Positions 35,960-39,547 of a DNA stretch of 64,000 bases are shown in pieces. The notes beneath the pieces were generated by a model that saw only the letters and a program-made list of their open reading frames with translations, was not told the DNA's origin and searched no databases. Within the stretch, counting starts at the first letter, position 1; each line of letters begins with the position of its first letter. Source of the DNA: Escherichia coli (GTDB lineage Bacteria; Pseudomonadota; Gammaproteobacteria; Enterobacterales; Enterobacteriaceae); NCBI RefSeq assembly GCF_029227855.1, contig NZ_CP074356.1. One strand, written 5' to 3'. A program made the translations under genes and the position numbers.

Positions 35960-37210
35960 TTACATGTTCTTGATGATCGCATCACCAAACTCTGAACATT
36001 TCAGCAGTTTAGCGCCATCCATCAGACGCTCGAAGTCATAGGTTACAGTCTTGGCGTTGATTGCGCCTTCCATACCTTTAACAATCAGGTCTGCGGCTTC
36101 AGTCCAGCCCATATGGCGCAGCATCATCTCAGCGGAGAGAATAATAGAGCCTGGGTTTACTTTGTCCTGACCGGCATATTTCGGCGCAGTACCGTGGGTG
36201 GCTTCAAACAGGGCGCATTCGTCACCGATGTTTGCGCCTGGGGCGATACCGATACCGCCGACCTGTGCAGCCAGAGCGTCAGAAATGTAGTCACCGTTCA
36301 GGTTCATACAGGCGATAACATCATATTCAGCCGGACGCAGCAGGATCTGTTGCAGGAATGCGTCAGCAATCACGTCTTTAATGACGATCTCTTTGCCGGT
36401 ATTCGGGTTTTTAACTTTCATCCACGGGCCGCCGTCGATCAGTTCACCGCCAAACTCTTCACGCGCCAGCTGGTAGCCCCAGTCTTTAAACGCGCCTTCG
36501 GTGAACTTCATGATGTTGCCTTTGTGCACCAGGGTCACAGAGTCACGATCGTTAGCAATTGCGTATTCGATCGCTGCACGAACCAGACGTTTGGTGCCTT
36601 CTTCCGAACACGGCTTAATACCGATACCGCAATGTTCCGGGAAGCGAATTTTCTTCACGCCCATCTCTTCACGCAGGAATTTAATCACTTTCTCGGCGTC
36701 GGCAGAGTCAGCTTTCCATTCGATACCCGCATAAATGTCTTCCGAGTTTTCACGGAAGATAACCATATCGGTCAGTTCAGGATGTTTAACCGGGCTTGGG
36801 GTGCCCTGATAGTAACGTACCGGACGCAGGCAGATGTAGAGATCCAGTTCCTGGCGCAGGGCAACGTTCAGAGAACGAATACCGCCACCAACCGGAGTGG
36901 TCAGAGGGCCTTTAATGGCAACGCGATATTCACGAATCAGATCAAGGGTTTCAGCAGGCAGCCAGACATCCTGACCATAAACCTGTGTGGATTTTTCACC
37001 GGTGTAAATTTCCATCCAGGAGATTTTACGCTCGCCTTTATAGGCTTTCTCGACTGCAGCGTCGACCACTTTCAGCATGGCTGGGGTTACATCTACACCG
37101 ATTCCATCACCTTCAATGTAAGGGATAATCGGATTTTCAGGAACGTTGAGTTTGCCGTTTTGCAGGGTGATCTTCTTGCCTTGTGCCGGAACAACTACTT
37201 TACTTTCCAT
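35960..37210 (-). CDS. icd: NADP-dependent isocitrate dehydrogenase
   Basis: 416-aa [48 protein letters not shown]...; 3' end abuts ycgX with no prophage. Confidence 0.96.
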
Positions 37211-37381
37211 TCACCTCTCCTTCGAGCGCTACTGGTTTGCTCGTCTGCCACCACGTTGCATATGCGTTTGCGTCCTGCGATACGGATGCATTAGAGCAAT
37301 TTTTTGTTAATGATTTGTAATTGGCTTGTCAATACTACCCTATTGTTTGCCGTCATGAAAGATGCGCGTTATTAGGCTATA

Positions 37382-37432
37382 ATGCGGCAATTCATAATCT
37401 CTGAAAATACCATGCAAAAAACTTCTTTTAGA
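37382..37432 (+). pseudogene. displaced original 5' end of rluE (first ~17 codons, [17 protein letters not shown]) separated from the gene body by a ~1.5 kb insert
   Basis: ATG 171 bp from the divergent icd start encodes [16 protein letters not shown], which I recall as the K-12 RluE N-terminus; after the 11-bp repeat cttcttttaga the frame runs into unrelated sequence and stops. Confidence 0.6.
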
Positions 37433-37671
37433 CCAAAGACAGTATTTTTCAGACCTTCAAATAAGGCATTAAATATCAATAAGTTATACCGGTTTTTAAG
37501 CAATAAAAAAAACCACCAGAGATAACTAACAGGATGCTATTTGGTCAAAATTTGACATTACTCGACTCAGCGACTATCTCACTTTGAGCACTATTGGGAA
37601 AATTATCAAAAGTCATGGTTGAAGCGACAAGCAACGAGTAAATTATGGCATCCCCCCTTTTTGAGGTTCAC

Positions 37672-37758
37672 ATGAAACGCTTTGCACTGATAGCTGTGAA
37701 ACTCGTTGCCTTTACTGGTTCTGCATCTGCTGCAACCGAAGAAATCAACTTCAAGTAA
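37672..37758 (+). CDS. possible 28-aa small protein with signal-peptide-like/hydrophobic N-terminus (MKRFALIAVKLVAFTGSASAATEEINFK)
   Basis: Not in the ORF track (too short); strong RBS gagg 5 nt before the ATG; perfect TTGACA -35-like hexamer at 37552..37557 upstream. Confidence 0.3.
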   Translation: MKRFALIAVKLVAFTGSASAATEEINFK

Positions 37759-37791
37759 CAGAAACACTATATAACAATGGAGTGTTGACAA

Positions 37792-38241
37792 ATGGATACT
37801 ACCGAAGAACGCAATGGAACATATTTCTACAGAGGACACCCTAACCTGTCCAAAATAGAACTACTCAACGTCATATTCCTTGAAGAATTCTGTAAGGAAT
37901 TGGGGATTGATTCGGTATCAGGTGCAGCAATCTTATCTGGTCAACCGTGGCTGGGTACAAGAGCGAAGCCGCAAGGGGCAACCCTGGGAACAAGTGTTGT
38001 CTCAAAGTATGCGCGTATACTGATGAGAGATGCACGCATGCCTTTTGGTATTTCTGTTCATACACCAGTGGGTGTAAGGATGCAGAAATCTAATAAGCTT
38101 GCTGCAATTATCGCTCGTTGGGTCCCGTGGATTGGTTGGGCTTCACTGTCGATGAGTCTTTACAGGCTTTCGACTCGTACCCAGGAAAAATACAATCTGA
38201 TTGCCAAACCTCAAGACCGTATTAAGTGGACTTCCTTCTAA
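37792..38241 (+). CDS. hypothetical 149-aa protein, cargo gene A of the rluE insert (candidate toxin-like partner)
   Basis: ORF with ggag RBS-like motif upstream; stop codon overlaps the start of the next ORF (TAATG); no recognisable family from sequence alone. Confidence 0.6.
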   Translation: MDTTEERNGTYFYRGHPNLSKIELLNVIFLEEFCKELGIDSVSGAAILSGQPWLGTRAKPQGATLGTSVVSKYARILMRDARMPFGISVHTPVGVRMQKSNKLAAIIARWVPWIGWASLSMSLYRLSTRTQEKYNLIAKPQDRIKWTSF

Positions 38242-38576
38242 TGGCGACAACAATCACAGACGAAGTTTTAGCACTGTTCCGTGATGAGATTCCAGGTTAT
38301 CAGGATGACCACGGGAAGGAAATTCCGTTAGAACTGGACTCTGATTTGTTCGACTATCCACGAGATGATTTAGAGGACGCTATACGGAAATACAAAGAGA
38401 GGTTTGGGATTAACCTGGATAATCTGGACTGGTCTTTGTACCTTCCATGGGAGTCTGCACCATTGCTTCAACGATGGTTCAAGCTCAAGCGGGAAGAGGT
38501 AGAAACAACACGTTTACCGTTAACTGTACGGATGTTTGCAGAATCAGCAGAAGCGGGAAAATGGCTGTATCAGTAG
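38241..38576 (+). CDS. hypothetical acidic 111-aa protein, cargo gene B of the rluE insert (ACP-like/DUF1493-like by recollection; candidate immunity/antitoxin-like partner)
   Basis: ATG overlaps the stop of gene A by 1 nt (translational coupling); acidic composition, no signal peptide, motif LELDSDLFDYPRDDLEDAI reminiscent of the ACP fold. Confidence 0.6.
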   Translation: MATTITDEVLALFRDEIPGYQDDHGKEIPLELDSDLFDYPRDDLEDAIRKYKERFGINLDNLDWSLYLPWESAPLLQRWFKLKREEVETTRLPLTVRMFAESAEAGKWLYQ

Positions 38577-38908
38577 AATAAAAAAGAAGGCTGCGATGCC
38601 CCTCTTATTACTGCTGATGATGGTAGTGGTAAAGCATCATCCTGAACTTGAACAGTGAAGTGCTGTCACCCATCAGTAATACAGAAACACTATTTTTCAT
38701 ACCAGTATTTATTCAATTCATCAATGTAAAATGTGTTCATTGGGCCATATTTCTCACCATGCAGCCACACAACCGCTGCTCACTAACCCAGGTATTGATG
38801 AAACCGCGCTGAAGAGCCTGAACCCTGAACCTCTAACGAGTACCTTAAAAGTCCAATGCAATCCGACACTGTGCTACCCTCTGCGTATAGCTCTATTTGG
38901 AATTTACC

Positions 38909-39547
38909 ATGAAATACTTTAGCGATTCTAAATCTTCTTTTAGAAAAAAACAGGTTAGTCGACTAAACTCGCAACACTCCACTAAGCGTAAACCTGAAAA
39001 TCAGCCCACGCGCGTGATCCTGTTCAATAAACCCTACGATGTTCTTCCGCAGTTCACCGATGAAGCCGGACGCAAAACATTAAAAGAATTCATCCCGGTT
39101 CAGGGCGTTTATGCAGCAGGTCGTCTTGACCGCGATAGCGAAGGGTTACTGGTGCTGACCAATAACGGCGCGTTGCAGGCGCGTTTAACCCAGCCGGGTA
39201 AACGCACCGGAAAAATCTATTATGTGCAGGTGGAAGGTATTCCCACACAAGACGCACTTGAAGCCTTGCGCAATGGCGTAACCTTAAATGATGGCCCTAC
39301 CCTGCCCGCAGGCGTAGAGCTGGTTGACGAACCCGCGTGGTTATGGCCGCGGAATCCACCAATTCGTGAACGCAAAAGTATTCCCACCAGCTGGCTGAAG
39401 ATCACCTTATATGAAGGACGTAATCGCCAGGTGCGCCGCATGACCGCCCATGTTGGTTTCCCCACGCTGCGACTGATTCGCTATGCGATGGGTGATTACT
39501 CTTTGGATAATCTTGCCAACGGCGAATGGCGAGAAGCGACAGATTAA
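38909..39547 (+). CDS. rluE: 23S rRNA pseudouridine(2457) synthase RluE with variant N-terminus
   Basis: From ...[61 protein letters not shown] onward matches RluE as recalled; first ~27 residues ([28 protein letters not shown]) are a diverged version of the displaced fragment; start could also be the TTG at 38897. Confidence 0.85.

Follow-up and report, generated by a model that had tools for sequence, protein, structure and literature searches.

The region between icd and rluE in the 64,000-nucleotide stretch of Escherichia coli DNA analysed here (referred to below as the window) raises the question of whether a micro-ORF that resembles a signal peptide with hardly anything behind it is a gene in its own right or a part of a gene that has been lost. 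The micro-ORF (37672..37758, + strand) consists of 28 codons and TAA and encodes MKRFALIAVKLVAFTGSASAATEEINFK; a GAGG Shine-Dalgarno sequence (37663..37666, + strand) lies 5 nt before its ATG at 37672, and a longer ORF of 37 aa begins in the same frame at ATG 37645. Parts of a Sec-type (signal peptidase I) signal peptide can be recognized in its product, namely, a positively charged n-region (M-K-R at residues 1-3), a hydrophobic h-region (FALIAVKLVAF in the window allele) with Lys10 inside its core, a position at which Thr is found in other alleles and in the outgroup, and a c-region with small residues at positions -3 and -1 (A-S-A before A-T-E-E). The AxA motif (ASA) is followed by 8 residues, ATEEINFK, and then by TAA at 37756-37758, with no mature domain behind it. 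The combination of a ribosome-binding site (RBS), n-, h-, and c-regions, and an AxA motif in one short ORF occurs once in the window vs. 0.07 times per simulated 64-kb sequence, the criteria for this count having been set after the micro-ORF had been seen. The sequence-only reading of this region, in which the details of TTGACA, TATCTC, RBS, ATG, peptide, frame, and the two following stops are all correct, proposed for the micro-ORF a promoter of its own and three possible natures: a small membrane or secreted peptide, a type-I-toxin-like protein, or what decay has left of the N-terminus of a larger protein that was once secreted. Results of our analysis indicate that it is most likely an ordinary gene remnant in a decaying, horizontally acquired islet of 1.5 kb.

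Anatomy of the rluE insert and its gene pair

The window represents the E. coli chromosome around icd (35960-37210, - strand), which is followed on the + strand by rluE-nudJ-mnmA-hflD-purB. The gap between icd and rluE holds an insert of 1512 bp (37433-38944) that is absent from K-12 and is carried by 374 of the 5426 complete E. coli genomes; its GC content is 43% vs. 49% for the window. The micro-ORF is located, as had been proposed, at the left end of this insert in the 5' end of rluE. The alignment to K-12 breaks after CTTCTTTTAGA, an 11-bp direct repeat that flanks the insert on the + strand (left copy at 37422..37432, right copy at 38934-38944) and has two matches in the window vs. 0.02 expected, two matches being found in none of 100 shuffled sequences. 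The original 5' end of rluE (MRQFIISENTMQKTSFR; 37382..37432, + strand) has been displaced: the K-12 rluE start is at the position equivalent to 37382, and this start now continues into the insert as an ORF of 47 aa (37382-37525). At its end, the Escherichia-specific right part of the insert (38587..38944, + strand) contains the right direct repeat and supplies rluE with a diverged 5' end as a replacement, for which PGAP places the start at 38909. The AT-rich left end (37433..37578, strand not assigned) has no similarity to sequences of other genera, plasmids, or phages; the stretch 37433-37534 is the most variable one among the alleles (substitution density of 0.176 vs. 0.029 for 37535-37672), and the GC content of 37433-37791 is 0.373. 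No integrase or other mobility gene is left in the 1.5 kb, and no match to PADLOC defence-system models was obtained.

The pair of genes that begins 33 nt downstream of the micro-ORF comprises gene A (37792..38241, + strand), which encodes an intact 149-aa protein of the STM2901 family (DUF8209; NF045926 match, 2.2e-45), and gene B (38241..38576, + strand), which encodes a 111-aa DUF1493 protein (PF07377 match, 1.2e-29; PGAP annotation) and whose start overlaps the gene A stop by 1 nt. The NF045926 NCBIfam model covers residues 8-142 of the gene A protein. Similarity to the corresponding cassette of other genera stops at about 38586. The micro-ORF is in the frame of gene A, the two starts being 120 nt apart (37792 minus 37672), with two stop codons in between (TAA at 37756-37758 and TGA at 37786-37788).

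This shared frame, interrupted by only two stops, is what speaks for the possibility that the micro-ORF is the decayed N-terminus of gene A, i.e., of an STM2901-family protein that was once secreted. A survey of the family, in which one genome per species was used and which yielded 51 loci, leaves this possibility practically negligible. The gene A family begins with ATGGA(T/C)AC, read as MDTTEE, in 51 of 51 species loci, with hcp or other DNA upstream, and most gene A homologues are proteins of 149 aa. Homologues of 160-171 aa in the databases result from over-called start codons, their upstream ATGs being inside decayed hcp sequence. A fusion of the micro-ORF to gene A in other genomes, for which the sequence-only reading suggested looking, is refuted by these MDTTEE starts, which are usually found right after hcp, by the 149-aa homologues, and by the over-called nature of the long forms.

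[quoted passage not shown] There is no hcp gene in the window. However, a probable hcp 3' relic was found by local alignment at 37579..37641 (+ strand), where the stretch 37579-37637 is colinear with the terminal ~63 nt of a T6SS hcp gene. Its score against the hcp 3' end of one cassette (L046) is 20.5 vs. 10.3 ± 1.6 in shuffled sequences (0 of 200), and when the maximum over 24 hcp genes is taken, 2 of 500 shuffles attain this score. Scores of 22.5-23 were obtained with other E. coli alleles. In one frame, the relic reads GKIIKSHG, a stop, and SDKQRV, which can be compared with GNIIYSDAWNDRQTI followed by a stop. This best match belongs to a distant cassette and not to the closest ones, and a search with an nhmmer profile of hcp found nothing. 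A further hcp remnant inside 37642-37791 was considered and rejected, as its score is at chance level (131 of 300 shuffles). Since the window retains this probable hcp 3' relic, the ~150 nt with the micro-ORF (37642-37791), which fill the place of the 12-16-nt spacer found elsewhere, appear to be extra DNA. The islet is a mosaic of a probable hcp 3' stub, these ~150 nt, an intact STM2901/DUF1493 pair, and a replacement rluE 5' end.

The lost hcp probably had gene A as its cargo, and gene B is presumed to encode a partner or immunity protein for it. The pN/pS values are 0.51 for gene A and 0.28 for gene B, and the structure model of the gene A product is poor (pLDDT of 58). Throughout Enterobacterales, the pair of STM2901-family and DUF1493 genes shows tight linkage to hcp, and it seems to constitute a T6SS effector-immunity family that has so far not been described; a search of the literature found no paper on the STM2901 family or on its linkage to hcp and DUF1493, and no secretion or toxicity data. 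The Ssp6-Sip6 island of Serratia marcescens is an orphan hcp-linked T6SS effector-immunity island (PMC6889166). As in islands of this type, in the family described here a small effector-like gene is followed by a small partner gene, often behind an orphan hcp, and the family is restricted to Enterobacterales, occupies variable locations, and is present in several copies per genome. The islet differs from Ssp6-Sip6 in its hcp, of which a probable stub of ~63 nt is left, and in the nature of the partner, a DUF1493 protein of 111 aa instead of a two-helix membrane protein of 67 aa. The linkage of hcp, STM2901, and DUF1493 is a more interesting lead than the micro-ORF.

Transcription signals around the micro-ORF

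The promoter proposed by the sequence-only reading (37552..37580, + strand) consists of TTGACA at 37552-37557, a 17-nt spacer, and TATCTC at 37575-37580. While its -35 hexamer and its spacing, within the usual 16-18 nt, agree with what is expected of a sigma-70 promoter, TATCTC has 3 of 6 matches to the -10 consensus, with C at position 6, and the site is not called in a consensus scan because its -10 hexamer is without the conserved T at that position. The third base of the -10 hexamer is polymorphic: four divergent E. coli alleles, as well as Escherichia sp. E1V33, have TAACTC. The occurrence of TTGACA is not above chance: 21 copies are present on both strands of the window vs. about 31 expected. 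An independent promoter for the micro-ORF is, on these grounds, not supported.

The scan of 37150-39000 gave two promoter-like sites vs. 4.0 ± 2.1 in shuffled sequences. The sole one on the + strand, ATGAAA-17-TATAAT with 10 of 12 matches (37355..37383), is in a stretch common to K-12 that belongs to the original K-12-type rluE, upstream of the insert. This site is a candidate source of read-through transcription. If the micro-ORF is transcribed at all, its transcription would proceed from this old rluE site into gene A, gene B, and rluE; we infer such a read-through because no + strand terminator is predicted before rluE, the scan for terminator-like sites having found none there. The other promoter-like site, the only one on the - strand (37630 to 37602), fires away from the micro-ORF, and no antisense promoter over the micro-ORF appeared in the scan. 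A search of the region against Rfam gave no match, and its predicted RNA structure contains nothing unusual (fold z-scores of -0.82 and +0.47).

Location on the same strand in the leader of the gene A/gene B bicistron, with no terminator in between, would be compatible with an upstream ORF or leader peptide, the translation of which tunes the expression of the two genes. We regard this role as very unlikely, considering that there is no attenuator-like structure (fold z-score of +0.47), that the micro-ORF does not overlap the RBS or start of gene A, and that homologous cassettes in 50 other species do without it.

The type-I-toxin-like nature suggested in the sequence-only reading, i.e., a small hydrophobic protein under the control of an antisense RNA, found no positive support either. 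Validated small membrane proteins and type I toxins of E. coli include Hok, Ldr, Ibs, and TisB. The micro-ORF resembles them in its size below 50 aa, its one hydrophobic stretch, and its good RBS, and the product would also have a basic N-terminus and an acidic tail. Unlike them, it is confined to one islet, has no antisense partner or family match, and carries an AxA motif of the leader type. The sole promoter-like site on the - strand points away, there is no match to Rfam antitoxin or toxin-leader families, and the region is single-copy and forms no stable structure. A Lys in the hydrophobic core and a canonical AxA motif also fit a leader peptide better, and a toxin of this kind seems to us highly improbable.

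Distribution, alleles, and constraint

Each of the 374 E. coli genomes with the insert has a single copy of the micro-ORF segment, which is also found in Escherichia sp. E1V33 and is always located between icd and gene A. A BLAST search of E. coli for other copies or sources of the segment returned only the islet itself, and matches in plasmid and phage records turned out to be mislabelled chromosome or host-flank sequence. In other genera, including Lelliottia and Cronobacter, and in the 51 species loci, the sequence at the position of the micro-ORF is unrelated, also at the protein level; a 13-mer common to the window and the promoter region of one of these loci (L026) is at chance level. 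The micro-ORF is restricted to the Escherichia islet, and the unrelated sequence that homologous inserts of other genera have at its position is an outcome named by the sequence-only reading as refuting its proposal.

Searches with the peptide did not reveal relatives. A comparison with a word-indexed set of 5.8 billion sequences found only the peptide itself, as did phmmer when run exhaustively against 1.84 billion representatives, a search of low power because the self-match reaches only E=1e-4. The DNA pattern for AATEEINFK is absent from viral contigs, and in metagenomes it was found in nine copies of the same ORF and in three chance matches. No Pfam match, including PF00497, was obtained for the micro-ORF, its read-through frames, or the right part of the insert. 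The micro-ORF is not called by PGAP, while the annotation of some submitters lists a hypothetical protein for it.

Differences between the alleles of the micro-ORF comprise K10T, V12I, a change of S to G, and an insertion and a deletion of 6 nt in a TCTGCA/TCTAGT repeat, which is slippage-prone and is the site of in-frame indels making the AxA region longer or shorter. Every observed substitution is non-synonymous, and synonymous changes were not seen. Rare missense variants are numerous and include losses of the start codon (M to L, M to I). Two forms, P0072 and P0073, are frameshifted, the latter being the allele of E1V33, in which TAA is also lost. The commonest allele (at least 1000 contigs) has the derived Lys within the hydrophobic core. 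The three common alleles (at least 1000, 981, and 234 contigs) are intact, and of more than 2,300 contigs, well over 99% have an unbroken micro-ORF. Among eight alleles, the substitution density of the micro-ORF is 0.070 vs. 0.029 for the preceding 138 nt, 0.033 for gene A, and 0.048 for gene B, and the micro-ORF alignment contains 15 gapped columns. Since the alleles differ by 8% or less and the islet is young, intactness is expected without selection; for the same reason of youth, neither intactness nor the small number of substitutions settles the question of selection. We see no sign of constraint on the micro-ORF, and weak constraint is compatible with the data.

These data bear on whether the micro-ORF is a genuine small-protein gene, with a product of 26-30 aa that is anchored in the membrane or exported and that possibly represents a co-opted artJ leader. 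Its GAGG at 5 nt from the ATG, the intactness of the three common alleles, the 6-nt length variants that stay in frame, and the annotation of a hypothetical protein by some submitters are consistent with such a gene. They are opposed by the lack of synonymous-only variation, by a density of substitutions and indels above that of the flanks, by the Lys in the core of the commonest allele, and by the occurrence of the in-frame indels in a repeat prone to slippage. Alleles with a frameshift or start loss, among which is that of a separate Escherichia species, the absence of homologues beyond the islet, and the absence of a PGAP call point in the same direction. A functional membrane or secreted peptide, as imagined in the sequence-only reading, gains no positive support from this analysis, and we consider it unlikely.

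Similarity to artJ and the origin of the micro-ORF

The reading that we favour, with modest confidence, is that the micro-ORF is a gene remnant, probably of ArtJ type, rather than a gene dedicated to a small protein and driven by a promoter of its own. The candidate, artJ, was chosen post hoc, the peptide resembling the N-terminus of ArtJ, and the K-12 artJ sequence was used for the comparison. In K-12, artJ encodes the periplasmic L-arginine-binding protein of an ABC transporter (SBP_bac_3 family, PF00497), and its RBS region, leader, AxA motif, and mature start can be aligned with those of the micro-ORF. The window sequence 37663-37751 aligns in register with artJ positions -10 to +74, so that the RBS region, ATG, leader, ASAA, and E(K/E)INF correspond to each other, and the proposed artJ-type 5' remnant, which comprises the RBS, the ATG, the signal peptide together with its cleavage site, and the beginning of the mature part, would occupy 37663..37782 (+ strand). 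The leader reads MKKLVLAAL-LASFTFGASAA in ArtJ vs. MKRFALIAVKLVAFTGSASAA in the micro-ORF, and the first mature residues are EKINF vs. (T)EEINF. A weak match to artJ goes on past the TAA stop codon (QKHY in the window vs. SATY in ArtJ).

The score of the artJ DNA alignment is 20.5 vs. 10.6 ± 1.4 in shuffled sequences (0 of 300), and 108 real 5' ends of Enterobacterales genes that encode signal-peptide-like or transmembrane-like segments give a mean of 9.35 with a standard deviation of 1.93 and a maximum of 14.5. The DNA identity is about 63% over 90 nt. At the protein level, 15 of 27 residues are identical to those of ArtJ (BLASTN E=0.002 and TBLASTN E=0.001, both for a single target). The artJ gene of Klebsiella pneumoniae aligns at the same coordinates with a score of 15.5 (2 of 300 shuffles), and no such alignment was obtained with Yersinia artJ. 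The leaders of artI, hisJ, argT, glnH, and eight other K-12 genes remain at the control level (7.5-11). With an HMM built of five binding proteins, the ORF by itself scores 9.9 bits, and reading through the stop codon raises this value to 13.2 bits, while the controls give -1.4 ± 2.2, with a maximum of 4.7. The single-test p values for artJ are about 3e-4 (DNA) and 2e-3 (protein), which after Bonferroni correction for ~500 secreted proteins become about 0.17 and about 1, respectively.

The part that can be aligned to artJ is only ~90-120 nt long. In comparison with artJ, the micro-ORF retains only the first ~25-35 codons, with no PF00497 domain and no art operon context. No match to ArtJ or ArtI was found in any related locus, and the micro-ORF is surrounded by icd, the hcp stub, gene A, and gene B. 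The possibility that the rest of artJ is represented by the right part of the insert was rejected: this part scores -4.2 bits with the binding-protein model, which is the null level, it has no Pfam match, and its weak tblastn matches are not colinear. A closer donor gene was not found either, as a search with a chimeric query gave only ArtJ fragments no nearer than that of E. coli. The micro-ORF is far more diverged from artJ than artJ orthologues are from one another. The similarity is suggestive, and the assignment of the micro-ORF to an artJ-type 5' remnant is likely but not established, as it is not significant proteome-wide.

Possibly, the micro-ORF is a chance ORF in ~150 nt of filler between the hcp stub and gene A, with no secreted protein in its ancestry. 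Codons rich in T and of the GC(N) type could spell a signal-peptide-like ORF behind a GAGG sequence, and a frequency of ~0.07 per 64 kb, at criteria chosen post hoc, is equivalent to several such ORFs per genome. The similarity to artJ is below proteome-wide significance, and no parent is present among the 1.84 billion representatives or in metagenomes. However, the RBS, start codon, n-, h-, and c-regions, AxA motif, and EKINF-like mature start are all in register with artJ and with its K. pneumoniae orthologue, and the artJ score is above those of all 108 real leader controls. A chance origin is in our opinion rather unlikely, although less so than the genuine small protein considered above.

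In the case of descent from an ArtJ-type gene, the micro-ORF would be the stranded first ~110 nt of a gene for a periplasmic amino-acid-binding protein, cut off by a stop codon. Its designed look, i.e., the RBS, ATG, MKR, hydrophobic core, ASA before A, and some polar residues at the end, would most likely be due to its ancestry in a binding-protein gene. The RBS and ATG of the stub may still load ribosomes, and translation of this kind would be incidental. The product, a signal peptide with 8 further residues, would be exported, cleaved, and degraded. Of the three natures proposed in the sequence-only reading, the third, a secreted protein of which the decayed N-terminus is left, has the best support, owing to the register with artJ, with the correction that the parent is not gene A. 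That a captured signal sequence of a binding protein has been kept as a functional exported or membrane peptide of 26-30 aa in the leader of the effector/immunity genes appears to us quite improbable; such a peptide might, for example, modulate the envelope entry or the expression of the orphan T6SS effector/immunity pair.

Remnants of gene ends at integration sites are known, such as the duplicated 3' end of icd beside prophage e14. The islet resembles such sites in that the rluE 5' end has been displaced as a small ORF, the insert provides a replacement for it, and 11-bp repeats flank the insert; the micro-ORF would be another case of a gene start that was left stranded. The islet differs from such sites in that no mobility gene is left and that the presumed parent of the micro-ORF is not the target gene.

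Taken alone, the micro-ORF matters little, as it would be one more stranded gene fragment. Gene starts that are left over keep their RBS and signal peptide and therefore mimic convincing small secreted proteins, which calls for caution in annotation; automatic pipelines already list the micro-ORF as a hypothetical protein. More valuable is its context: the STM2901/DUF1493 pair persists in E. coli as an hcp-less orphan within the 5' end of rluE.

Insertion of the islet into rluE

The insert interrupts rluE behind its 17th codon, and the old rluE promoter-like site is retained ahead of the 17 old codons, reading on into the insert, where these codons and insert DNA together form an ORF of 47 aa (window 37382-37525). 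The new N-terminus of rluE, which is homologous to the old one and diverged from it, is provided by the right end of the insert (window 38897-38960). The insert is bounded by an 11-bp direct repeat, CTTCTTTTAGA, an arrangement that resembles the outcome of site-specific integration, with the machinery since lost. A distant copy of the cassette, found in one metagenomic Enterobacterales bin (locus L059), adjoins tyrosine-recombinase fragments and has a 60-aa hydrophobic ORF directly 5' of the gene A relative (features at 1492-2508 and 2748-2930 of this locus), which hints that some cassette copies are carried by integrative elements.

Within the islet, the 13-nt sequence ACAGAAACACTAT is repeated exactly just 3' of the micro-ORF stop (window 37758-37770) and about 105 nt past gene B (window 38681-38693), and a third, related copy (18 of 22 positions) occupies the extreme left end of the insert (window 37434-37455). 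Shuffle tests on these repeats were marginal (7/300 and 15/300), and the repeats are not the exact borders of cassette homology, which ends at about 38586.

Variation among strains and a phage record with host flank

The poly-C tract located just 5' of the micro-ORF ribosome-binding site (window 37653-37658; see also locus L078) differs between alleles (C6, C5, and CACCC); in the C5 allele, the frame of the hcp relic continues uninterrupted into the micro-ORF (..SDKQRVNYGIPLFEVHMKRF..). Some strains with the insert carry a gene A cut down to 67 aa or one with a changed end (159 aa), and in strain AST85 an IS3 element lies immediately past gene B. Alterations of gene A or the islet were located in L093 (2900-3103), L089 (2654-3133), and L012 (2822-3356). 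The islet is under decay in parts of the population.

Record ON470584.1 (L080), deposited as a partial genome of Escherichia phage vB_EcoM-689R6, is a prophage integrated at icd, together with its host flank: the last ~6 kb are host chromosome with icd, the islet, rluE, nudJ, mnmA, and hflD, and include a 43-aa antisense ORF labelled "alpha-amylase".

The gene A/gene B pair and hcp

A full-length T6SS hcp gene is present directly upstream of the pair encoding STM2901-family (DUF8209) and DUF1493 proteins (gene A and gene B, window 37792-38576) in 26 of 51 Enterobacterales species; in loci L018-L065, hcp lies at about 2505-2990, and the gene A relative is at 3001. Among these species, a single genome can carry as many as three copies of the pair. 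The structure that AlphaFold predicts for the gene A product is of poor quality (pLDDT 58), and no literature on the STM2901-family/DUF1493 pair was found. The pair has the appearance of an effector/immunity family that is linked to Hcp and has yet to be described.
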